A DNA stretch of 64,000 nucleotides, taken from Anaeromyxobacteraceae bacterium. Its GTDB lineage: Bacteria; Myxococcota; Myxococcia; Myxococcales; Anaeromyxobacteraceae. Of this stretch, positions 33,768-44,645 are shown in pieces. Below the pieces are notes generated by a model, which saw only the letters and a list, made by a program, of their open reading frames with translations, was not told the origin of the DNA and made no database searches. Within the stretch, counting starts at the first letter, position 1, and every line of letters begins with the position of its first letter. Location: the NCBI GenBank assembly GCA_035762305.1, contig DASTPH010000096.1, positions 984 through 64,983 on the forward strand, written 5' to 3'. A program made the position numbers and the translations under genes.

Positions 33768-35477
33768 CTAATACCTCCCCTCCAGGGCGGCCAGGCCGGT
33801 CGCGCCCCAGTCGACCGAGACGGTCGAGCCCTCGCCACCCAGAGAGGGAATGGCGAACCGCGACAGGAGCGACAGCCTGAGCCGCAGCCAGGCGTTCAGG
33901 TCGAAGAGGCCGGAGAATGCGACTCCCACAGTGCTGTCCGCCGAGAGCGGCGCCGGCCGGCTGTCCATGGTGAAGGCCAGGCGGGCCATGAGGCGCGTCC
34001 CGGTGCCCGGTGCGAAGTCACCCTGGGCCCACAGGCTGCGCCCCGAGAGCCAGCCGAACTCCTCGGCGTAGCCGGCGGAGAAACCCCCCGACTTCCAGGC
34101 CTTCGGGACCAGGATCTCCGGCCCCACCCAGGAGCGCTCGTTGCCCGAGACGGCGTCGCTGGCCCAGCCGCCGAAGAGGCGCAGGGACACCGGCCCGAGC
34201 GCCTCCAGGGTGGCCGCCCCCTCGAAGTGGTCGGTCCGGCCCGGGTAGACGGCGGGCGCGGCCGGCTCGCTGGCGGGGAGATCGAAGTGCCGGTAGGAGG
34301 CGAGCAGGCTGAAGCTCCCGGCGCGGCGCCAGCCGAGGTCGGCCGCCCCGTACTCCAGGGCCCCGGTTCTCGACCCGTAGCGAAGCTGGGCCGACAGGTC
34401 CAGCTCGCGCCACAGCCAGGCCTCTCCCATGAGCTCGGCGGCGAAGCCACCGCCGGCCGGGACGCCCTCCACCACCGCCAGCCGCCCCTGATGGCGCACG
34501 ACGACGTCGGGCGAGGCGCGCTCCACGGCCCAGTAGGCGCCTCCCGTGCTCTGGTCCAGCGTCGGCTCGGTGGTGGCCGGGAGCGGCAAGAAGCCGCCGA
34601 AGAGCCCCACCTCGAGCTTTTCCGAGGGGCGCCAGCCGACCTGCGCCCCGTCGAAGACCGAGCTCCCCACCGCGCCCCAGGTCATGACCCGCCCCGCGCT
34701 CAGGGGGACGGTCACGCCGGGGTCCCGGCGCGCCACCTGGAGCTCCCGGACCAGGAGGAAGGCCTTCTGCCCCGGCTGGAAGCGCTCGGTGTCCGATTCC
34801 GCCGCGCGGTAGACGGCCTGGGCGTCCACCCAGAGCCGGAACCCCGACCCCAGCTCGGCCCCCCGAATGGTGCCGTTCACGAAGAGCTGGCTCTGGGTAC
34901 TGGCGCTCACCGAGCCCCAGAGCTGCGCCCCCAGCGACACCGCGCTCCGGAGCACCCGGTCGGCCTCGGCGGGCCGGGCGGCGGACGGGGCCCGCTCGAC
35001 GAGCGTGAACGCCGCCGCCTTCACCGCGGCCAGGCGCCGGGCCTGCTCCTCGGCGGTGGGCTGGGGCGGCAGCGCCTTCCCGGCCGCGGCCGCCGCGCCC
35101 TCGGGGAGGCGGAAGGTGTCCCCGGCCCGCAGGCCCGCGCCGGCGCAGGTGGCGCTCCGCTCCGAGATTGCCTCCACCGTGCAGCGCCCGGCCGGGCGGC
35201 CGCGCCGCACCAGGTCCACCGTCGCCCCGGCGAGGATTCCGTCGCGGCTCCCGGCGTCGAGGTAGGCGAGGCTCGCGGCCACGAAGCGGACCGAGCCGGA
35301 CGCGGCGCGGGGCCGGACCGAAACCGGGCGCAGCGGCAGCGGCGAAGTGGAGGCGGCCGGTTGCTTGAGCGGGGTTGCCGCGGCCGGGGACCGCTTCGGC
35401 TTCCCGGCGGGCTTTTGGGCGGGCGCGGCAGCCGCGGCCAGGGCCATCAGGGCGGCGGCCATCGGGACCGCGCTCAT
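33768..35477 (-). CDS. Predicted outer-membrane beta-barrel protein (porin-like partner of the multihaem cytochromes)
   Basis: Signal peptide MSAVPMAAALMALAAAAAPAQ. About 170-aa N-terminal soluble region, then about 390 aa of alternating-hydrophobic strands. C-terminal residue is aromatic (LAALEGRY). ATG overlaps the upstream stop (ATGA). Confidence 0.65.
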   Translation of the reverse strand: MSAVPMAAALMALAAAAAPAQKPAGKPKRSPAAATPLKQPAASTSPLPLRPVSVRPRAASGSVRFVAASLAYLDAGSRDGILAGATVDLVRRGRPAGRCTVEAISERSATCAGAGLRAGDTFRLPEGAAAAAGKALPPQPTAEEQARRLAAVKAAAFTLVERAPSAARPAEADRVLRSAVSLGAQLWGSVSASTQSQLFVNGTIRGAELGSGFRLWVDAQAVYRAAESDTERFQPGQKAFLLVRELQVARRDPGVTVPLSAGRVMTWGAVGSSVFDGAQVGWRPSEKLEVGLFGGFLPLPATTEPTLDQSTGGAYWAVERASPDVVVRHQGRLAVVEGVPAGGGFAAELMGEAWLWRELDLSAQLRYGSRTGALEYGAADLGWRRAGSFSLLASYRHFDLPASEPAAPAVYPGRTDHFEGAATLEALGPVSLRLFGGWASDAVSGNERSWVGPEILVPKAWKSGGFSAGYAEEFGWLSGRSLWAQGDFAPGTGTRLMARLAFTMDSRPAPLSADSTVGVAFSGLFDLNAWLRLRLSLLSRFAIPSLGGEGSTVSVDWGATGLAALEGRY

Positions 35478-36301
35478 GGCCGCCTCCCGGGCAGGGACGG
35501 CAGGCCGGGCACGGTGAGCCGTCCCGGCCGCGACGGGCCAGGCTTGCCGCCCCCGCCGCCGCTGCAGTTGGTGTGGCAGTTGGTGCAGCGGGTGGTGGTG
35601 CAGGCCGGACCGCACGCCGGCGGGTTCGGGTAGGTGAAGTGGCAGTCGCGGCAGGCGATTCCGGCGTGCTGGCCGCTGGAGATGACGAAGCAGGCGTCGT
35701 GGCCCGGGAAGAACCCGTTCTTGAAGCTCCAGGCCTGGTGGCACTCCCGGCAGTCGTGGGGGAAGCCGGCCGCGGCGTGGTCGATGGAGCCCGGACGGGA
35801 GGTCCCGAGGTAGTCGGCCTGGTGGCAGTCGTAGCAGGTGGAGATGGGGCGCGACTGGCCGCGGTTCAGCCGATCCCCGTGGCACTCCTCGCAGGGGATG
35901 AAGGCGTGCCGGCCGGTGAGCGGGAAGCCGGTCCGCCGGTGGGCGTCGGGGTCGAAGCGGGTCTGCCAGGACTCCTCGCCGTGGCAGGCGGCGCAGCGGG
36001 GGCCGAGGGTACCGCGGTGGGGGTCGCGGTGGCAGGCGCCGCACTCGCGCCCCAGCGACCGCGAGGTGTCCGCCCCGTGGCATCCCTGGCAGCCGACCCG
36101 GCGGTGCTCTCCCCGGAGCGGGAAGCCGGTGCGCTCGTGGGCGAAGGCCACGTCCTGCCAGCTCTCGGTGGAGTGGCAGCGCTCGCAGCGGCTGTCGGCG
36201 CCGGCGTGGAGCGAGGAGGGCGGCGAGGGGCGCAGGTCGGGCTCGGCAGCTGCGGCCGCCAGCGCGGCGAGCAGGGCGGCGGCGAGGGCGAGTGCGCGCA
36301 C
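35474..36301 (-). CDS. Multihaem c-type cytochrome, 9 CXXCH
   Basis: GTG start, 2 nt after the upstream stop. Signal peptide VRALALAAALLAALAAAAAE. CXXCH motifs: CERCH, CQGCH, CGACH, CAACH, CEECH, CYDCH, CRECH, CRDCH, CTNCH. Cys/Gly/Pro-rich tail. Confidence 0.85.
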   Translation of the reverse strand: MRALALAAALLAALAAAAAEPDLRPSPPSSLHAGADSRCERCHSTESWQDVAFAHERTGFPLRGEHRRVGCQGCHGADTSRSLGRECGACHRDPHRGTLGPRCAACHGEESWQTRFDPDAHRRTGFPLTGRHAFIPCEECHGDRLNRGQSRPISTCYDCHQADYLGTSRPGSIDHAAAGFPHDCRECHQAWSFKNGFFPGHDACFVISSGQHAGIACRDCHFTYPNPPACGPACTTTRCTNCHTNCSGGGGGKPGPSRPGRLTVPGLPSLPGRRP

Positions 36302-36303
36302 GG

Positions 36304-38085
36304 TCAGAACCCCTTCAGGGCGCCCTTGTGGAAGTCGGCGTGGCACCCGGCGCAGGTCTTGGGCAGGCCGCGCCAGCGCCGGACCTTCACGCCGTCCACC
36401 CTGACCTCGGCGTGGCAGGCCTCGCACTTGGCCCTGGCGTGCCGGCCGGTGAGGGCGTAGTCGGTGAAGGGGGGCTCGTGGCGGAAGCGGGCGGCCTTCC
36501 AGTCCTCGGCGCCGTGGCAGCGGCCGCAGTCGGTCCGGTCGCGAGACGAGCGGGCGAACTGGGCGCCGTGCGGGTCGGCATGGCAGGCGGCGCAGGCGCT
36601 CTCCACGCCGCCGTAGCGGGCCGCGCCGGTCCGGGTCCGGGAGTGGCAGGCGGCGCAGGCGGCCGTGAGGTGTTTCCCCTCCAGCGGGAAGCGGGTCTGC
36701 CCGTGGTCGAAGCGGGTGCGGGCGAAGGTGGTCACCTCGTGACAGCCGGCGCAGCCCTGGGGCCCGCCCTTCTTCGAGAACTCGGGGCCGTGCGGGTCGG
36801 CGTGGCAGGTCTCGCAGCGGGAGAGATCGCCGGCCACGTGGTAGACCGCCAGCGAGAGCTTCACCGGCCGGCCGCGCCGCTGAAGCTCGGCCCGGACCGC
36901 AGCCGGGAAGCGCTCGCCCACCCGCGGATCGCTCTGGTGGCAGGCCGAGCAGGCGACGGTGCGGTGCGCCCCCTCGAGCGGGTAGCGGCTCCGGGCGTGC
37001 TCCTCCGGGCCGTAGCTCACCGGCTGGTACCCGGCCAGCGAGTGGCAGCGGTCGCAGCGGCCGGCGTCGGGCCCGGAGCGCAGCATCTGGCCGCCGTGGG
37101 CGTCGGCATGGCAGTCGGAGCAGGCGGCGAAACCGAGCCCCTTCCAGAGCGGGGCCTCGGCGCCGAACGGGCCGTGGCAGGCCTTGCACTCCACCTCTGC
37201 ATGCCGCCCCTCCAGCGGGTAGCGGGTCTTCTGGTGGAAGGCGCGATCCTCGCCGGCGCGGGCCACCAGCGTCCGCCAGTCGGCGGGGGTGTGGCAGCGC
37301 TGGCAGGCAGGCCCGAACCGGCCCTGGTGCGGGTCCTTCTGGTGGCAGTCGGCGCAGGCGGCGTGGGCCACCGGCCGGTAGCGCAGGAAGTCCTTGCGGC
37401 GCGGGGCGCCCGGGCCCATCTCGGCGCCGTCCTCCAGCCGCGGGTGGCACTTGTCGCAGGCCACCCTGGCGTGCTTGCCCTGGAGCGGGTAGGCGGTGCG
37501 GGCGTGGTCGAAGCCCGGGGCCGGCTTCCAGCCCTTCTCGTCGTGGCACGTGCCGCACTCCCGTCCCAGCTGGCCGCGGTGCTCGTCGGCGTGGCAGGCC
37601 GAGCATGCCGACGGCGCCCCCAGGAACGTGGCGCGGCCCGGCTTCTTCTCGAGCCAGGCCCGGATGCCCGGGTCCGCGACCAGGGCCCGATCGTGGCACT
37701 TCTCGCAGCCCACGGGCGCGTGCTTGCCGCGCAGCGGCGTCCCGGTCCGAGCGTGGTCGAAGCGCGCCCGCCCGCCCGGCCCCCAGTCCACCAGGGCGAA
37801 GTCCCGCCCCTGGTGCTCGTGGTGGCAGGTCCAGCAGTCGCGCTCGGCGCCCGCGAGCCGCCCGTGGAGCCCGCGTCCGGCGGCCAGCGAGCCACGGAGC
37901 TCCTCGTGGCAGGCGAGGCACGACTCCTGCGCCAGCCGCCGCCCCTCGGGGTGGCAGCGGGTGCAGCTCTTCATGCCCTCCAGGGAGGCGTGCGGCTTCG
38001 CCAGCTCGCCCGGGGAGAAGAGATCCACCGCCAGGGCGGCGGGGGCGAGGGCGATGAGGCAGGCGGCGATCAGGGCGCGGGCCAA
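36304..38085 (-). CDS. Multihaem c-type cytochrome, 20 CXXCH
   Basis: TTG start with GAGGA RBS, 13 nt after the upstream stop. Signal peptide ARALIAACLIALAPAALA. 20 CXXCH by manual count, arranged as repeated F(D/R)HxxTx(F/Y)PLxGxHxxxxCxxCH modules. Confidence 0.9.
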   Translation of the reverse strand: MARALIAACLIALAPAALAVDLFSPGELAKPHASLEGMKSCTRCHPEGRRLAQESCLACHEELRGSLAAGRGLHGRLAGAERDCWTCHHEHQGRDFALVDWGPGGRARFDHARTGTPLRGKHAPVGCEKCHDRALVADPGIRAWLEKKPGRATFLGAPSACSACHADEHRGQLGRECGTCHDEKGWKPAPGFDHARTAYPLQGKHARVACDKCHPRLEDGAEMGPGAPRRKDFLRYRPVAHAACADCHQKDPHQGRFGPACQRCHTPADWRTLVARAGEDRAFHQKTRYPLEGRHAEVECKACHGPFGAEAPLWKGLGFAACSDCHADAHGGQMLRSGPDAGRCDRCHSLAGYQPVSYGPEEHARSRYPLEGAHRTVACSACHQSDPRVGERFPAAVRAELQRRGRPVKLSLAVYHVAGDLSRCETCHADPHGPEFSKKGGPQGCAGCHEVTTFARTRFDHGQTRFPLEGKHLTAACAACHSRTRTGAARYGGVESACAACHADPHGAQFARSSRDRTDCGRCHGAEDWKAARFRHEPPFTDYALTGRHARAKCEACHAEVRVDGVKVRRWRGLPKTCAGCHADFHKGALKGF

Positions 38086-38098
38086 GGGTCCTCGAGGT

Positions 38099-40315
38099 TC
38101 AGTCGAGCAGGATGAGGCCGTAGCCGAGCCACAGCGAGACGCCGATGTGGGCGGCGATGGCCAGGACCAGGAAGACGGCCAGCGAGGCGTGGAAGATGCG
38201 CCAGCCGCGCATGAGCGACTTCAGCGAGCGCGAGAGCGCGATCTGCAGCCGGAGCTGCTCCAGCCGGTGCATGTCGGCGGCGAACTCGGCGAAGGCGGCC
38301 CGGCTGGGGAAGGCCCGGGCGGCGCGGCGCAGGGCGCGCCAGGAGGCGAGCGACTGCAGCGGCAGGTGCACCAGCGAGCCCACCATCGAGCGCGGCGGCA
38401 ACGGCGCCGTCACCGCCTCGAAGAGGCGGCGCAGCGGGGCCGGGTCCGTGGCCTGGGCCAGGAGCGGCTCGACCTCGGCGCGGGCTCGCACGAAGGACCC
38501 CTGCAGGTCCTCCACCTCCAGGGCCTTGCCGCCCGAGGACGGGATCAGCCCGTAGATGAAGCGCCCCACCACGCCGGTCGCCACCACCACCCCGAGGGCG
38601 GAAGCGGTGGCGGTGGCGAGCAGGTTCTTCGACTGGAAGGCGGCGTGGAAGGCGATGACCAGCGGGCTCATGAAGCCCACGAAGACGTGGAAGAGCAGCC
38701 ACAGCCGGATGTCCCCCAGGCCGGAGAGGAGCGGCACCCGCTTGCGCGCCGCGTAGAGGAAGTTCGAGAGCATGAAGGCGGTGGCGGCGATGCCCACCCC
38801 GTGCCCGAAGGGGCCGGCCGACTTCAGCGAGGCGTGCAGGGAGAGGCGCAGCCGCTCCCGCCACGGGGTCAGGTAGTAATCCCAGCCGCGCCAGGCCAGG
38901 AACGCCAGCAGCGCCGCCCCCAGCGCCGCGTAGAGGACCGACAGGCGCCGCTCGCGCGCCCGCTGGGCTCGCTCCCGCGCCTCGGCGTGGCCAGCGCTGG
39001 AACGCGCCCCGCGGGCCTCGCCGAAGTAGCGCCGCATGGAGACGCCGGCCTTCTGGAGCAGCTCGGCCGGGGCCTCGCCGCCCACGCTCACCAGCACGAA
39101 GTCGTTGTCGAGGCGGAGCGGCCGGCCGGCCATCTCCAGATCCACCTCGTGGGCTTCGATGCCGCGCACCTGGGAGCTGGGGAGCAGCCGCAGCCTCCCG
39201 GCCTGGCCCAGGGCGGCGGCGCGCTGACGGTTCGGGGCCCGGCAGGAGGGGTCGGGCTTGCGGTAGGAGAGGACCACCTGGGCGTCGGTCTCCTCGGCGA
39301 GCTGGCAGGCGGCCTCCACCCCCGAGTCGCCGCCGCCCACCACCAGCACCCGGGTGCCCCGGTACTGCTGCGGCTCGTCGAGGTCGTAGACCACCTTGGC
39401 CCGGTCCTCGCCCGGAACCCCCAGCTTGCGGGGAGTGCCGCGCCGCCCCACCGCCAGCACCACCTGCCTCGCCGGCACCGGCCCTTGCGCGGTGAGGACC
39501 GTGAAGTCGCCCTCCTGCCCCTCGACGCCCGTGACCCGCATCCCCTGCTCCACCGCCAGGCCCGCCTTGTCCACCATGCGCCGGAAGGCGGCGGTGAGCT
39601 CCTCCTTGGAGATGCGCCGCTTCCCGAAGCGCCCGTAGAAGGGAAGCGTCACCGTCTCGGTCATCACCACCTTGCCGCGGGGGTAGTGGGCCACCGCGCC
39701 GCCGAGGACGTCCTGCTCCAGCAGGCGGAAGCCGATGCCGCGGGCCCGCGCCCCCAGGGCCGTGGCCAGCCCGGCCGGGCCGGCGCCCACGATGGCCACC
39801 TCGGCCTGTCCCGGCCGGACCGGCCCGCGGCGCTCCGCCAGGTGCTCCGCCACCTCCAGCCCCTGGCGGAGGGCGTTCTTGATGAGCCCCATGCCGCCCA
39901 ACTCGCCCACCACGAAGACGCCGGGCCGAGACGACTCGAAGACCTCGGAGAGCTCGGGCAGCTCCAGGCCGCGCCGGGCGGTACCGAACACCAGCTGGAT
40001 GGCGCCCACCGGGCACTCGGCGGCGCAGCGCCCGTGGCCGATGCAGTTCTCGCCGTGCACCAGGGTGGCGGTCCCGTGGACCATCCCCAGGATGTCGCCC
40101 TCCGGGCAGACCTTCACGCAGGAGAGGCTACCGATGCAGACGTCCGGGTCGATGACCGGGTGGAGCGAGCGGGGGAGGTTCCGCTCCTCCCCGGCCCGCC
40201 CGAGGGCCTCGGAGGCGGCGGCGGCGCGGCGCGCCCGGTGCAGGGCGTAGATCCCCGCCATGACGACCGCGGCGCCGACCGCCACCGCCGGGAACACGAT
40301 CTGCGAGAGATCCAC
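38099..40315 (-). CDS. Membrane-anchored fusion protein with FeS, flavin and putative haem-b domains
   Basis: Domain order: N-terminal TM helix, two ferredoxin-like motifs, FAD/NAD(P)-dependent oxidoreductase, C-terminal multi-TM domain with twin H-x13-H helices. N-terminal TM followed by HRARR. CIGSLSCVKVCP and CIGHGRCAAECP. Two dinucleotide folds VAIVGAGPAGLA and VLVVGGGDSGVE. C-terminal TM helices LLFHVFVGFMSPLVIAFHAAF and IFHASLAVFLVLAIAAHIG. Confidence 0.8.
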   Translation of the reverse strand: MDLSQIVFPAVAVGAAVVMAGIYALHRARRAAAASEALGRAGEERNLPRSLHPVIDPDVCIGSLSCVKVCPEGDILGMVHGTATLVHGENCIGHGRCAAECPVGAIQLVFGTARRGLELPELSEVFESSRPGVFVVGELGGMGLIKNALRQGLEVAEHLAERRGPVRPGQAEVAIVGAGPAGLATALGARARGIGFRLLEQDVLGGAVAHYPRGKVVMTETVTLPFYGRFGKRRISKEELTAAFRRMVDKAGLAVEQGMRVTGVEGQEGDFTVLTAQGPVPARQVVLAVGRRGTPRKLGVPGEDRAKVVYDLDEPQQYRGTRVLVVGGGDSGVEAACQLAEETDAQVVLSYRKPDPSCRAPNRQRAAALGQAGRLRLLPSSQVRGIEAHEVDLEMAGRPLRLDNDFVLVSVGGEAPAELLQKAGVSMRRYFGEARGARSSAGHAEARERAQRARERRLSVLYAALGAALLAFLAWRGWDYYLTPWRERLRLSLHASLKSAGPFGHGVGIAATAFMLSNFLYAARKRVPLLSGLGDIRLWLLFHVFVGFMSPLVIAFHAAFQSKNLLATATASALGVVVATGVVGRFIYGLIPSSGGKALEVEDLQGSFVRARAEVEPLLAQATDPAPLRRLFEAVTAPLPPRSMVGSLVHLPLQSLASWRALRRAARAFPSRAAFAEFAADMHRLEQLRLQIALSRSLKSLMRGWRIFHASLAVFLVLAIAAHIGVSLWLGYGLILLD

Positions 40316-40551: not shown

Positions 40552-41232
40552 TCAAAGCTCCTGGATCCCGCCGTCCTGCATCCGCATGCGGCGTCCGGCG
40601 CGGCCGGCCAGCTCGGAGTTGTGGGTCACCATGACGAAGGTCGTGCCCCGCTCCCGGTTCATCCTCATGAAGAGCTCCATCACCTCGGCCTCGGTCTGCT
40701 CGTCGAGGTCGCCGGTGGGCTCGTCGGCCAGCACCAGCGACGGCGCGTTCATGAAGGCGCGGGCGATGGCCACGCGCCGCTGCTGGCCGCCGGAGAGCTG
40801 CGACGGGTAGGCGCCGGCCCGGTCGCCGAGCCCGACCAGCCGGAGCAGCTCCACGGCCCGGGTCTCGGCCCCGTTGAGCGGACCGGCCCGGGGGCGGAGC
40901 GTCACCGGCAGGAGCACGTTCTCCCTGGCCGTCAGGACCGGGAGCAGGCTGGCGAACTGGAAGACGAACCCCACGTGATCGCGCCGGAAGGCGGTGAGCC
41001 GATCGCCGTCCAGGGCGTAGAGGTCGGCGCCGTCCACCAGGACCCGGCCCGACGAGGGCCTGGCCATGCCGCCCAGGATCGAGAGCAGCGTGGTCTTGCC
41101 GGAGCCGGAGTGGCCGACGATGGAGACGAAGTCGCCGCGCTCGACGGTGAACGAGACGTCCTTCACCGCCTCGGGGCGGTCCCCGCCGGCCGCGAAGCGC
41201 TTCTCCACTCGCTCCACCACCAGGTGCGGCAC
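40552..41232 (-). CDS. ABC transporter ATP-binding protein (MacB/LolD-type)
   Basis: Walker A GHSGSGKTTLLS, signature LSGGQQRRVAIARA, Walker B LVLADEPTGDLD. Confidence 0.9.
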   Translation of the reverse strand: MPHLVVERVEKRFAAGGDRPEAVKDVSFTVERGDFVSIVGHSGSGKTTLLSILGGMARPSSGRVLVDGADLYALDGDRLTAFRRDHVGFVFQFASLLPVLTARENVLLPVTLRPRAGPLNGAETRAVELLRLVGLGDRAGAYPSQLSGGQQRRVAIARAFMNAPSLVLADEPTGDLDEQTEAEVMELFMRMNRERGTTFVMVTHNSELAGRAGRRMRMQDGGIQEL

Positions 41233-41233
41233 C

Positions 41234-42430
41234 CTACTCCTCCTTCAGCACCATGAACGGCTCGATGCGCCCGGCGCGGCGGATGGGCAGGAGCGCGCCC
41301 AGCACGCACACGCCGGTGCCGACGAGCAGGCCCACCGCCGCGATGGTGGCGCGCTCTCCTCCGCCGAGGTCGGCGGTGACGCTCCGGAGGATGGCGAATC
41401 CCCGCGCCGGCACGAGCGAGAGGGCGGTCCCGAAGAGGACCCCCAGGGCGCTGCCGAGCCCCCCCACCATCACCACCTCGGTGAGGAAGAGCCGGATCAC
41501 GTGGGACTCGGTGGCCCCGATGGCCCGCAGGATCCCCACCTCGCGGGCCCGCTCGTTGGCGACCCCGGAGAAGACCGCCCAGGCCAGGCAGGCGGCCATG
41601 AGCGAGGCCACGGCGATGAAGGCCGCGAAGACCCGGCGGATGTCGCCCAGGGCGCCGAGGACGCTCTTGCCCACGTCCCGCCGCGCCACCGCGTCCACCT
41701 CGACGATGGAGTCGTCGATGCGGCCGGCCACCACCTGGGGATCGACGCCCGGCTCGACCCTGGCGAAGATGACCGAGACCTGGCCCTCGGCGACCCGGGG
41801 CTTGCCCTTGCGGATGAGGTCCTGGACGTTGCTCCGGTCCACGAACACGGCGGTGTCGAGCCCGGTGCCGGTCTTCTCGAGAACCCCCACCATCCTGAAG
41901 ACGTTGCCGAACAGGACCGCGTCCACGTCGGTGAGGCCCAGGCCGATGTTGAGCGCCGACTCGCTCCCCACCAGGGCCTCCCCGTGGCCCAGGTTCCGAT
42001 GGAGCGCCCGGCCGAGCCAGGGCTTCACCACGAAGTCGGTTTCCTGGTCGAACGCGACCACCATGGTGTCTGGCACGTCGCAGCAGGCTCCGCCCAGGGT
42101 GACCAGATAGGTCTGGGCGGTGACCCGCTCGATCCCGGGCACGGCCCGGACCCGTTCGACCAGGCCCCCCTCCATGTAGAAGCCCTTGACCCGGTGGTCG
42201 ATGAGCACGTCCTCGGCCGAGCCCCGGGAGCCGGTGGGCACCACCAGGACGTCGGCGCCGAGCCGGTCGGCGGTCTTGCGGATGCTCGACTCGACCCGGC
42301 GGACGAAGGACAGCCCGAACACCAACGACGAGACCAGGAGGCCGATGGCCGCGACCAGGATGGCGGCCCGCGCCGGACGTCGCGCCAGGTTCTTGAGGGC
42401 GTGCCTGGAGAGGCCGAAGGCCTTGGGCAT
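41234..42430 (-). CDS. ABC transporter permease (FtsX/MacB-type with large periplasmic domain)
   Basis: TM1, about 220-aa periplasmic domain, then 3 TM helices. FtsX-type REVGILRAIGAT. CC pair (GGACCDVPD) in the periplasmic domain. Confidence 0.85.
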   Translation of the reverse strand: MPKAFGLSRHALKNLARRPARAAILVAAIGLLVSSLVFGLSFVRRVESSIRKTADRLGADVLVVPTGSRGSAEDVLIDHRVKGFYMEGGLVERVRAVPGIERVTAQTYLVTLGGACCDVPDTMVVAFDQETDFVVKPWLGRALHRNLGHGEALVGSESALNIGLGLTDVDAVLFGNVFRMVGVLEKTGTGLDTAVFVDRSNVQDLIRKGKPRVAEGQVSVIFARVEPGVDPQVVAGRIDDSIVEVDAVARRDVGKSVLGALGDIRRVFAAFIAVASLMAACLAWAVFSGVANERAREVGILRAIGATESHVIRLFLTEVVMVGGLGSALGVLFGTALSLVPARGFAILRSVTADLGGGERATIAAVGLLVGTGVCVLGALLPIRRAGRIEPFMVLKEE

Positions 42431-42497
42431 GGGGGCGCTCGCGGGGGGCTCGCTCCACCCGGCCGGAGCCGGGCGGAACGAGCCCGCGCCAGGGAAG

Positions 42498-43646
42498 CTA
42501 CTTGCCGAAGTTGGCGGCGAGGCCGCAGAGGATGGCGTTCTTGTCGCCCTTCCCCATGTCCTTGTGGCAGCCGAAGCACACCGAGGCGGTCTTGCCCACC
42601 AGCTTCTTGGCCCCGACGTCGTAGAGCGCCAGGGTGCCGTCGGTGATCTTCTTGTCGGGCGTGGGCTTGCCCTCGGGGTCGCACCCCTGGGTGTCGGCGG
42701 TGCGCAGCGTCAGCAGCGCGTACTTCCCGTCCGGGGTGGGCTGCACGTCGTGGTTCTCGCCCAGGGCCGGCTTGGTCATCTTCTCGTCCACCATCTTCAG
42801 CGTCTTGGCGTCGATGACCCACATCCGGTCGGCTGCCGACTGGAAGATGAGCTTGTCGTCCCGGCTGAAGTACTGCCGGAAGGTGATGGTCTTCCCCGGC
42901 TCACCGGCCAGGGTGTTCTCGGCCAGCTTCTTGAACTTGCCCTTCTCGAGCGCCGGGAGGTCGAGCATGACGAACGCCTGCTTGCCGTTCATGTTGCCGT
43001 CCTCGCCCTTCAGGCTCAGCGCCACGACGAACTTCTTCAGATCATTGGAGTTGGTGCCGTGCAGGAACTGGTAGGAGCCGGGCTTGAAGCCGAGGTCGCT
43101 GATGAACATCCGCCTCTCGTGCTTCATGGTCTTCTTGTCGAAGACGTCGATGTACCCCTCGGTCCCCATGAACACCGGCATGAAGGCGTTCTTGCTCTGG
43201 CCCGAGGCGCAGTAGACCGGGCCGGTCTTGGCGGGGGACCTGGCATCGGGCGTCAGCGCCACGTCCTTCACCACCTCGCCGGTCTTCAAGTTGGTCTTGC
43301 CCACGTGCATCTTGCCCTCCTTGTCGAGGGCGTAGGTGGACCAGAAGAGGGTGTTCGCGTCGGTGGCGTCGAGGCGCGCGTCGTGGGTCTTGTGGCTCTC
43401 GGTGGTGCCGATGGCCACCATCTCGAGGTTGTTGACGGTGACGGGCTGGTCGGCGTTGGACGGGTCGACGGTCACCTGCGCCTTGGAGAAGTGGCCGCCG
43501 TGGCCGGCCACGTAGACGGTGGCGGCGTAGGTGCCCGACTTGGCGGGCGCGGCCGGAGGCGCCTTGGCCGAGGCCACCGGCGCGACGAGGTAGGCGAGAA
43601 GGGCGAGCGCGACTGCTGGGGCGAAAACGGCGAGTGTCTTCTTCAT
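42498..43646 (-). CDS. Secreted Lys-rich protein, probable beta-propeller, with a single C-terminal CXXCH haem-c motif
   Basis: RBS GGGAG 8 nt before ATG 43646. Signal peptide MKKTLAVFAPAVALALLAYLVAPVASA. His clusters AGHGGHF, ESHKTHD, FLHGTN, ENHDV. C-terminal CFGCHKDMGKGD. Confidence 0.7.
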   Translation of the reverse strand: MKKTLAVFAPAVALALLAYLVAPVASAKAPPAAPAKSGTYAATVYVAGHGGHFSKAQVTVDPSNADQPVTVNNLEMVAIGTTESHKTHDARLDATDANTLFWSTYALDKEGKMHVGKTNLKTGEVVKDVALTPDARSPAKTGPVYCASGQSKNAFMPVFMGTEGYIDVFDKKTMKHERRMFISDLGFKPGSYQFLHGTNSNDLKKFVVALSLKGEDGNMNGKQAFVMLDLPALEKGKFKKLAENTLAGEPGKTITFRQYFSRDDKLIFQSAADRMWVIDAKTLKMVDEKMTKPALGENHDVQPTPDGKYALLTLRTADTQGCDPEGKPTPDKKITDGTLALYDVGAKKLVGKTASVCFGCHKDMGKGDKNAILCGLAANFGK

Positions 43647-43765
43647 CACTGAGCTCCCTGAGTGGGGTGTGTGGCGTACTTCACTTTTGGTGAGTGGTGT
43701 GCGGTACCGGCCTTCGTCCCCCTCCCCTGGTCCAGCGCTTCCGCCTCCTTTCCGCGGCTCGTCCG

Positions 43766-44236
43766 CTATCCGGCGATCCTGACCGAGGTGACCTTCTCGC
43801 CCGCCCTCTCGAAGGCCAGGCGGAGGGTGAACTCGTATCCCTGGCCGACCTCCCCGGGGAGGCCGAACACCATCACGTGCAGCCCGCCCGGCCTGAGCTC
43901 CACGGCGCCCCGGGCCGGGATCCGGACCCGCTGCTGCTTCACCATCTTGCCGTCGACCACCCCGTGCAGCTCGGCCACCGCCCCGGGGATGCCCACCGTG
44001 GCGCCGAGCAGGGAGTCGTCGCCGCTCCCCGCGTTCTCGATCCGCATGAAGATCGAGCAGGTCCGGAGCAGGACCGGCGAGAGACGCGCCTCCTGCCCGG
44101 CGATGGCGATGCTCGGCGACCCGGAGCAGGCGGCCGCGCCCAGGGCCAGGAGCGCCAGGCGCCGCGGGGCGGACTTCCAGCCCGCCCGGCCGGATTCCCG
44201 GCGGGCCTGCCTCGACACGCCGGCGCCATCGGTCAT
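43766..44236 (-). CDS. Copper chaperone PCu(A)C (DUF461) lipoprotein
   Basis: Lipobox LALGAAAC. IENAGSGDDSLLGATV...AELHGVV...MVKQQRV..IPARGAVELRPGGLHVMVFGL matches the PCuAC H/M copper-site pattern. An alternative start at ATG 44275 is possible. Confidence 0.8.
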   Translation of the reverse strand: MTDGAGVSRQARRESGRAGWKSAPRRLALLALGAAACSGSPSIAIAGQEARLSPVLLRTCSIFMRIENAGSGDDSLLGATVGIPGAVAELHGVVDGKMVKQQRVRIPARGAVELRPGGLHVMVFGLPGEVGQGYEFTLRLAFERAGEKVTSVRIAG

Positions 44237-44645
44237 CGCGACCACGAACCGCTTTCCCGGGACCCTGGCTCCCACGAGCGGCCCCCGCCGCCGTGTGCCG
44301 GCCCTGCGCCATCGCGTCGACCGCGCGAACGGCTGCGATTCATGCGTTTCAGCTACGCGAAACGCGGTGGGAGCGTCAACGCGAAGAAGCCTGATAGGGC
44401 GAACAACGAAGCTGATATGGGCCGGAAGGAGCGTTTTCGTCCCTCGGGACGCGTACCTCGCCCCGCCGGCTCGCTCGCCTCATCCAGGCGCCGGGGCGCG
44501 GCGCGGAGCCGCGGCGTGCGGCTCGGCCCGGAGTTGGCGCGCTGCACCGCGGCGAGCGGCGCCCGCCTCCACGAGCGGCCTCACCTCACGGCGCCGCCAG
44601 GATCTCGACGGCGCAGGAGCTCTCCACCGGCAGCGAAGGCCCGGG

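Follow-up and report, generated by a model that had tools for sequence, protein, structure and literature searches.

A flavin- and iron-sulfur-fused membrane protein with twin H-x13-H helices: a candidate inner-membrane wire to a multihaem cytochrome conduit in Myxococcota

How might a myxobacterium connect the reductant in its cytoplasm with multihaem cytochromes that lie beyond its inner membrane? The question is raised by a locus in a 64,000-nucleotide stretch of contig DASTPH010000096.1 (hereafter the window; 72.6% G+C), from the metagenome-assembled genome (MAG) of a member of the Anaeromyxobacteraceae described as a soil bacterium. A single gene at this locus encodes a 738-amino-acid (aa) protein, in which a flavin- and iron-sulfur-binding module is fused to a transmembrane (TM) domain, and the gene is followed directly by one encoding a 20-haem c-type cytochrome. 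An earlier reading of the DNA, made from the sequence only, had remarked upon two TM helices that each carry a pair of histidines in the spacing H-x13-H, and had proposed for the protein a logic like that of NOX enzymes and ferric reductases. The observation of the twin helices is confirmed, and the interpretation finds support as a working model, in respect of the logic and not of membership in the NOX family. Taken as a whole, the evidence makes it fairly probable, though far from certain, that the protein is a b-type cytochrome with two bis-His haems, which would act as a wire from cytoplasmic NAD(P)H to an extracellular acceptor, possibly without the participation of quinones.

The fusion protein and its four histidines

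The open reading frame (ORF) at 38099-40315 corresponds to database protein HEU4383903.1, annotated as "NAD(P)-binding domain-containing protein". The elements that bear on the histidines are listed here in window coordinates.

38099-40315, minus strand: fusion gene, 738 aa, encoding a TM anchor, an iron-sulfur (FeS) domain, a flavin adenine dinucleotide (FAD)/NAD(P)H domain and a 5-TM four-histidine domain
38102-38944, minus strand: C-terminal 5-TM domain, aa 458-738, of an unclassified family and a putative di-haem cytochrome b; mean predicted local distance difference test score (pLDDT) of 79 in the AlphaFold2 (AF2) model
38636-38704, minus strand: TM-C, third helix of the domain, aa 538-560, with H543 and H557 after W-x2-F-H
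38117-38206, minus strand: TM-E, fifth helix of the domain, aa 704-733, with H709 and H723 after an invariant W-R-x-F-H

Translation of the gene places the four His codons (38687-89, 38645-47, 38189-91 and 38147-49) exactly where the sequence-only reading had located them, and both spacings are H-x13-H. The first pair, H543 and H557, is found in ...RLWLLFH(543)VFVGFMSPLVIAFH(557)AAFQ..., where the intervening stretch is also given as VFVGFMSPLVIAF. The second pair, H709 and H723, is found in ...GWRIFH(709)ASLAVFLVLAIAAH(723)IGV..., with the intervening stretch also given as ASLAVFLVLAIAA. Both pairs are situated within hydrophobic helices, as indicated by Kyte-Doolittle peaks at residues 538-556 and 712-730 and by AF2 helices spanning residues 536-561 and 672-737.

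Taken by itself the spacing is suggestive only, because at least two H-x13-H pairs were obtained in 1.15% of 200,000 shuffles of the 293-aa domain, which contains eight histidines. A chance origin of the four residues is excluded by their conservation. A homologue search with the C-terminal 293 aa as query returned 136 homologues, mostly metagenomic fragments of Myxococcales-type organisms, and among close homologues H543, H557, H709 and H723 were retained in 116/116, 121/121, 117/117 and 118/118 sequences, respectively. A profile search of 1.84 billion cluster representatives extended the family to 3,055 members at E<=1e-3 (1,685 at E<=1e-10), which corresponds to some 3,000 clusters when sequences are grouped at 50% identity. 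Among the 150 best of the 3,055 representatives, the corresponding counts were 134/134, 136/136, 125/125 and 123/123; the other invariant or nearly invariant positions in this set were an Arg after TM-B, the W-x3-H that opens both His helices, the G-x2-GR that ends TM-D and a C-terminal Gly. Finally, an alignment of 54 sequences (the window domain and 53 mostly stand-alone relatives, 23-47% identical to it) contained 12 invariant columns, four of which are these histidines. The proposal had been made to hang on the conservation of the four residues in homologues, and all of them prove to be invariant throughout a large family. A third H-x13-H pair in the protein, H80/H94 of the ferredoxin-like domain, was rejected as a chance occurrence, since H80 is not conserved.

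The flavin and iron-sulfur module

The N-terminal portion of the fusion protein contains three recognizable elements.

40244-40300, minus strand: N-terminal TM anchor, aa 6-24, followed by HRARR (aa 26-30); kept in the flavoproteins of loci in which the module and the TM domain are encoded by separate (split) genes
39992-40162, minus strand: ferredoxin-like two-cluster domain, aa 52-108; Pfam Fer4_10, E 5e-11
39032-39802, minus strand: two-Rossmann FAD/NAD(P)H flavoprotein domain, aa 172-428; Pyr_redox_3, E 2e-37

The Pfam layout bears out the earlier remark that the order of domains is unlike that of NOX, the dehydrogenase being N-terminal to the TM domain. The positively charged HRARR after the first TM segment is also present as described and, together with the anchor, is predicted by the positive-inside rule to place the FeS/flavin part of the protein in the cytoplasm.

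The motifs of the ferredoxin-like domain are atypical, in that the canonical second Cys is absent from both: the first reads C60-x2-S63-x2-C66-x3-C70-P and the second C91-x2-H94-x2-C97-x3-C101-P. Among 23 full-length homologues the six Cys were universal (23/23), His94 was present in 22/23, and position 63 was occupied by Ser in 18/23 and by Cys in the remaining five. The same unusual Cys/His motifs occur in the split flavoproteins. Such motifs suggest that the clusters are either [3Fe-4S] or [4Fe-4S] with Ser/His ligation; FeS clusters from which electrons exit typically have a His ligand.

Both dinucleotide motifs of the flavoprotein domain are intact (the FAD motif GAGPAG at residue 177 and the NAD(P)H motif GGGDSG at residue 327), and a conserved Arg352, which comes after the latter, suggests that NADPH may be the substrate. 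The best matches in the PDB were the YpdA/Bdr structures 7A76 (E 3e-19) and 7A7B, together with TrxR-type ferredoxin-NADP reductases. In YpdA, the Cys of GGGPCG is the redox-active residue. The fusion protein has the two Rossmann motifs of YpdA/TrxR-type proteins but neither form of their redox-active Cys: the YpdA position is an Ala in the alignment (GAGPAG versus GGGPCG), and a motif search for the CxxC of TrxR found none anywhere in the 738 aa. With its FAD and NAD(P)H motifs intact, no CxxC and Ala in place of the YpdA Cys, the domain therefore resembles an FNR/YpdA-type NAD(P)H dehydrogenase and not a disulfide reductase. The best NCBIfam match, "YpdA bacillithiol disulfide reductase", is not supported as a function, as its score is far under the cut-off (132 versus 340 bits) and the Cys is missing; nor is the JGI label "dihydropyrimidine dehydrogenase PreT".

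Two architectural variants were observed among the family representatives. In one, P0172 (873 aa), the Fer4 and FAD domains are separated by an FHA domain; the other, P0135 (949 aa), has a low-complexity insertion of ~200 aa within the flavoprotein.

Topology and family of the membrane domain

The C-terminal domain consists of five helices, A to E; the protein's sixth TM segment, the N-terminal anchor, lies 430 aa distant. A long insert separates the last two helices.

38207-38548, minus strand: cytoplasmic Arg-rich helical insert between TM-D and TM-E, aa 590-703 (114 aa); pLDDT 87-95, the best-modelled part of the domain

This insert may serve as a docking platform for the FeS domain. In the variant P0172 it seems to be lacking, and TM-D and TM-E jointly match positions 5-63 of DUF4405.

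The FeS/FAD part is necessarily cytoplasmic, which implies that TM-C and TM-E are both oriented from the inside outward. Hydropathy and the AF2 helices place H543 and H709 each five residues from the cytoplasmic end of its helix, and H557 and H723 in the outer half. By this simple analysis, each His helix carries one histidine on the cytoplasmic side and one on the periplasmic side, the arrangement that two stacked bis-His haems need.

The affiliation of the domain was sought through its relatives. In a Pfam scan of the 54 mostly stand-alone family members at E<=0.05, DUF4405 was matched by 35, Ni_hydr_CYTB (cytochrome b561) by 22 and Ferric_reduct by 17, while every other Pfam family was matched by two members at most. 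Among the relatives whose scores were checked, P0188 alone exceeded the cut-off for DUF4405 (PF14358), with 28.2 versus 26.7 bits; relatives also bear precomputed PF14358/PF01292 labels. The W-x2-[LF]-H opening of the His helices is common to the window domain and Escherichia coli MsrQ (W-A-T-L-H91 and W-Q-Q-L-H151), and it forms the best stretch in the hhalign comparison of the two. We conclude that the TM domain is probably a divergent, unclassified branch of the assemblage of di-haem membrane cytochromes b; membership in the ferric-reductase domain (FRD)/NOX family proper is not demonstrated.

The cytochrome and barrel genes

Three further genes on the same strand continue from the fusion gene.

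36304-38085, minus strand: 20-haem c-type cytochrome, 593 aa; signal peptide, exactly 20 CxxCH, Cytochrome_C7/c3 matches
35474-36301, minus strand: second c-type cytochrome, 275 aa; signal peptide, 9 CxxCH, 2 nucleotides after the 20-haem gene
33768-35477, minus strand: outer-membrane beta-barrel protein, 569 aa; signal peptide, small N-terminal beta domain, 22 predicted strands

The first of these begins 13 nucleotides beyond the stop of the fusion gene and is the 20-haem cytochrome of the sequence-only reading, whose haem count was recovered exactly. The protein bears a weak resemblance to HmcA (E 2.8e-11; 42.7 bits versus a cut-off of 400). The second cytochrome has nine CxxCH motifs versus ten in nearly all of its homologues, whose C-terminal ...KCYECH gives way here to a Gly/Pro-rich tail. 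The tenth motif is not encoded in any other frame, and its absence is thus either a real loss or a local assembly error.

The start of the barrel gene overlaps the preceding stop codon (ATGA). No Pfam match was obtained for the 569-aa protein. Its AF2 model (pLDDT 78.6) gave 283 PDB matches in Foldseek at E<=1e-3, and the best 50 listed were all outer-membrane barrels. The small beta domain that precedes the barrel (aa 60-123) is well modelled and contains two invariant Cys (C99 and C111), and a linker rich in Ala/Pro and disordered also precedes the barrel. The beta domain may act as a plug on the periplasmic side or as a docking site for a cytochrome.

Conservation of the locus in fused and split forms

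A scan of 185,579 species genomes revealed 184 loci that encode the TM domain, the best 80 of which were used for counts of synteny. Almost all of the 80 are labelled as Myxococcota or former Deltaproteobacteria, and three carry a Proteobacteria/Pseudomonadota label only. The named taxa comprise Anaeromyxobacteraceae, Myxococcaceae and Archangiaceae, and include A. oryzae Red232 and Myxococcus sp. RHSTA-1-4. The order of fusion gene, 20-haem cytochrome, 10-haem cytochrome and barrel was maintained in ~70 of the 80 loci, and the haem counts of 20 and 10 are almost invariant across the homologous loci.

Many family members are stand-alone proteins of ~295 aa, and six loci of such stand-alone TM genes were inspected. 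In five of the six, the ~300-aa TM gene adjoins, usually divergently, a separate Fer4-Pyr_redox gene (~440 aa), in which the TM anchor is retained. In four of these five there are also multihaem cytochromes, two or three in number, together with a protein of ~530-580 aa without a Pfam match, and one contains the flavoprotein-TM pair with no cytochromes. In the split locus L087 (13394-13879), cytochromes and a barrel-sized protein are present, but the cytoplasmic partner is just a 161-aa Fer4 protein, with no flavoprotein; there, electrons would have to be drawn from some other enzyme or from a pool of soluble ferredoxin. The FeS protein and the TM domain thus form the constant pair, which favours FeS as the cofactor in contact with the inner haem, with NAD(P)H/FAD usually supplying the electrons. 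The suggestion that the flavin/FeS part is wired to the 20-haem cytochrome likewise gains support from the strict synteny and from the split FeS(-flavo)protein genes that lie next to the TM gene. Two apparent fusions of the TM domain with cytochrome c (P0205 and P0183) are frameshifted gene calls on high-GC contigs, with long Arg/Pro/Ala-rich nonsense, and provide no evidence of fusion.

The homologous loci vary in their complement of additional cytochromes. In many, the 10-haem protein is separated from the barrel by a third cytochrome of 8-14 haems. Additional multihaem cytochromes of very large size (26-44 CxxCH), beside the module or inside it, were observed in four others (L015, 16950-20861; L021, 12091-17229; L025, 4621-7602; L068, 15103-18834), and in L015, L021 and L068 they lie downstream of the barrel. 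These large or extra cytochromes may be extracellular terminal reductases or wires. Three MAGs (those of loci L001, L036 and L055) contain a second full copy of the fusion (L006, L026 and L073), which has no multihaem cytochrome or barrel adjacent to it. Such orphan copies may make use of cytochromes in trans or may have a different acceptor.

Proposed electron path

In the proposed mechanism, electrons would be taken up on the cytoplasmic side, where NAD(P)H would reduce the FAD of the fused YpdA/TrxR-type flavoprotein, and would then pass, presumably in this order, through the two clusters of the ferredoxin-like domain to an inner haem b. The latter would be ligated by H543 and H709 near the cytoplasmic face. 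An outer haem b, probably held by H557 and H723 near the periplasmic face, would take electrons from the inner haem across the membrane and hand them to the co-transcribed periplasmic 20-haem cytochrome, which would span the periplasm. From there, electrons would reach the 9/10-haem cytochrome in or beside the 22-strand outer-membrane barrel and, ultimately, the physiological acceptor, presumably an extracellular one. The system would thus constitute a trans-envelope NAD(P)H:extracellular-acceptor oxidoreductase, NOX/FRE-like at the inner membrane and similar to porin-cytochrome conduits at the outer membrane, with electrons running outward and, possibly, independently of quinones.

For electrons from NAD(P)H, the outward path is downhill and follows the membrane potential, and it conserves no energy. 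Redox dumping, or an assimilatory or defensive extracellular reduction (as in yeast FRE and NOX), therefore fits the proposed path better than classical respiration, and such a role may explain the presence of the system in aerobic myxobacteria.

Several observations weigh against the wire from NAD(P)H to the cell surface. A respiratory role is not obvious, because the export of electrons from NAD(P)H does not in itself conserve energy. Cytochrome genes are missing beside some of the paralogues and beside one split pair (L006, L026, L073 and L088). The window domain has no match in the PDB, nor any in Pfam or NCBIfam over aa ~455-738, and no hit to PF01794 was obtained even at E<=0.05. The Pfam matches of its relatives are sub-threshold but for one among the scores examined, and mostly span a single His helix. 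Sequence and profile searches against PDB sequences (queries A1, A2 and P0263) yielded nothing relevant, and hhalign of the family profile with single E. coli sequences gave no significant score for MsrQ (E 0.34) or YodB (E 0.43). Foldseek of the TM-domain model against the PDB produced generic helical bundles (best E 0.16); this search is uninformative on the TM fold, because the confident cytoplasmic insert dominates the model. The TM helices themselves have pLDDT values of only 55-84, and the periplasmic A-B loop contains four Lys/Arg residues, such that the positive-inside signal is not clean there. Finally, a quinone site in the TM domain is possible.

The last point leads to the alternative that survives best, although we regard it as unlikely: the TM domain would be a quinone-coupled cytochrome b, i.e., a quinol dehydrogenase or quinone reductase of the CbcL, NarI or FdnI type, and the quinone pool would not be bypassed. 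Either menaquinol would feed the multihaem cytochromes via the haems, or the flavoprotein/FeS module would reduce menaquinone as an alternative NAD(P)H dehydrogenase. Members of the Ni_hydr_CYTB/cytochrome b561 family are quinone-reactive, and 22 of the 54 relatives weakly match that model. Moreover, the inner-membrane entry points of Gram-negative extracellular electron transfer, as described in part of one review, are quinol oxidases or quinone reductases (PMC6295460). Nevertheless, in every locus examined, the six split ones as well as the fused ones, the TM gene was joined to, or lay beside, the gene of a cytoplasmic FeS(-flavo)protein, which argues that the haems connect to a cytoplasmic redox partner, and the complete chain of cofactors from cytoplasm to periplasm makes a quinone step unnecessary. 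No recognisable quinone-site motif turned up, although no search aimed at one was made.

A still less likely possibility is that the wire runs inward, so that extracellular or periplasmic donors, such as Fe(II), reduced humics or a partner cell, would deliver electrons through the cytochromes and the b-haems to FeS and NAD(P)+. Multihaem conduits are reversible, as in the Mto/Pio-type systems, and in the Hmc/Tmc complexes of sulfate reducers periplasmic electrons pass inward via a cytochrome b to a cytoplasmic FeS protein; the weak, below-cut-off likeness of the 20-haem protein to HmcA (E 2.8e-11) points in the same direction. Inward flow would, however, oppose the membrane potential, and the reduction of NAD(P)+ (about -320 mV) by Fe(II) or humics would be strongly uphill. 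No coupling device is visible in the operon, and the family is found in heterotrophic Myxococcota, including genomes of Myxococcus and Archangium.

That the four histidines are not haem ligands, and instead form a metal or di-metal site or a cation path in a transporter or sensor mounted on a redox enzyme, is highly improbable: the window domain does lack an above-threshold match to any cytochrome family and the TM region of the AF2 model is of moderate confidence, but two stacked bis-His haems have as their specific geometry H-x13-H on two helices, with the His pairs equally deep in the membrane (NOX criteria, PMC5676040), the sole recurrent Pfam families among the relatives are three models of di-haem b cytochromes, and the genes linked to the family in genomes encode FeS proteins and multihaem cytochromes rather than transporters.

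Comparison with known systems

The proposed NAD(P)H-to-surface wire shares features with several established systems without coinciding with any of those compared here. NOX enzymes are recognized by bis-His motifs of the form H-x12-14-H on the third and fifth helices, with electrons passing outward via two stacked b-haems, and SpNOX is able to reduce cytochrome c directly (PMC5676040). The fusion protein has H543-x13-H557 and H709-x13-H723 on its third and fifth helices and, like the NOX/FRE proteins (including SpNOX and CsNOX5), combines in one polypeptide a TM domain and a cytoplasmic NAD(P)H/FAD dehydrogenase. Two of the three NOX hallmarks, namely the FNR-type dehydrogenase motifs and a contiguous six-TM FRD, are nevertheless lacking. 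The NOX FAD motif is absent, and the one match to the NADPH motif is spurious, falling within TM-B (aa 506). In place of six contiguous TM helices (PF01794, which 17 of 54 relatives match at sub-threshold level only), the window domain has five, plus the 114-aa cytoplasmic insert. The N-terminal YpdA/TrxR-type two-Rossmann flavoprotein and ferredoxin-like domain are not homologous to the FNR-like domain of NOX, and the proposed acceptor is a dedicated chain of multihaem cytochromes rather than O2 or an Fe(III) chelate. The NOX/ferric-reductase-like logic that had been proposed thus stands, whereas membership in that family does not: the dehydrogenase is of the YpdA/TrxR type, the FAD/NADPH motifs of NOX are absent and there is no FRD match.

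A second group of relevance comprises DUF4405, MsrQ, the PepSY-like proteins (FoxB) and FezC. DUF4405 has been shown by experiment to bind haem b, and its four central histidines resemble those of MsrQ and PepSY-like proteins (PMC11334425); MsrQ draws on the cytoplasmic NAD(P)H flavin reductase Fre (PMC5676040). The window domain shares with this group the four conserved central histidines on TM helices (fewer in MsrQ), but it gave no hit to the DUF4405 model (PF14358). In contrast to DUF4405-type cytochromes, it has five helices versus six and a long conserved cytoplasmic helical insert, and it is partnered by an FeS-flavoprotein and multihaem cytochromes rather than by ApbE-flavinylated proteins, MsrP or ferrosomes.

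The porin-cytochrome conduits (MtrCAB and the Pcc systems of Geobacter) are similar in arrangement and in the barrel model, in that the barrel gene adjoins genes for periplasmic multihaem cytochromes, as in the pcc clusters (PMC4245776). Their inner-membrane step, unlike the NAD(P)H-type FeS-flavo-cytochrome b described here, is a quinol oxidase (CymA, ImcH or CbcL). The published pcc cluster of Anaeromyxobacter, which encodes a porin and a 12-haem cytochrome of ~340 aa (PMC4245776), is a different locus.

The connection of cytoplasmic FeS, a cytochrome b and a periplasmic multihaem cytochrome c is also a property of the Hmc/Tmc complexes, as well as of the fusion system. In Hmc/Tmc, the chain leads from the periplasmic multihaem cytochrome c through the membrane cytochrome b to the cytoplasmic FeS protein and is thought to run inward; the cytochrome b is of the NarI/HdrE type, the FeS subunits are HdrD-like (CCG) and there is no NAD(P)H flavoprotein. 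Neither a NarI/HdrE-type cytochrome b nor HdrD-like CCG domains were found in the fusion protein with Pfam and NCBIfam.

Neighbouring genes

The region upstream of the fusion gene (40552-44479, minus strand) contains the following genes.

40552-41232, minus strand: ATPase of a MacB/FtsX-type ABC transporter
41234-42430, minus strand: permease of the same transporter
42498-43646, minus strand: secreted protein of 382 aa; no Pfam match, single C-terminal CxxCH
43769-44479, minus strand: PCuAC copper chaperone

These genes may form a copper or cytochrome maturation/export cluster. The upstream ABC/FtsX, propeller-cytochrome and PCuAC genes were rejected as members of the system, their synteny being restricted to the closest relative (L001).

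Implications

No description of this architecture was found in the literature searched, which took in few subscription journals, and this is no proof of novelty. With that proviso, we tentatively put forward a stronger proposal, which seems to us nearly as likely to be right as wrong: the fusion protein would be the inner-membrane entry module of a previously undescribed, quinone-independent and NAD(P)H-fed trans-envelope conduit, a bacterial, two-membrane analogue of eukaryotic NOX/FRE. The proposal includes an unclassified family of cytochromes b, conserved across Myxococcota, among them aerobic and predatory genera. It has a realistic chance of being the first example of an entry module that is fed by NAD(P)H, bypasses quinones and serves a trans-envelope cytochrome conduit in a Gram-negative bacterium.

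The locus also brings to light a large family of probable di-haem b cytochromes outside all Pfam/NCBIfam models now defined, and the occurrence of fused and split forms makes the assignment of partners directly testable. The compact four-gene cassette, which leads from the cytoplasm to the cell surface, could also be moved to other hosts for bioelectrochemistry.

The inner-membrane steps in the literature searched (CymA, ImcH, CbcL and CbcBA) draw on the quinone pool, and direct coupling to NAD(P)H, if true, would represent a new entry point. The energetics would then be different, with no proton-motive gain and a net depolarisation of the membrane, as in NOX. Under such an NAD(P)H-fed scheme, iron acquisition, redox dumping and extracellular chemistry of reactive oxygen species or other redox compounds are possible roles, rather than classical respiration. 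The physiology would differ as well, being one of redox balancing, of assimilatory or defensive extracellular reduction, or of the survival of "aerobic" myxobacteria in anoxic microsites.

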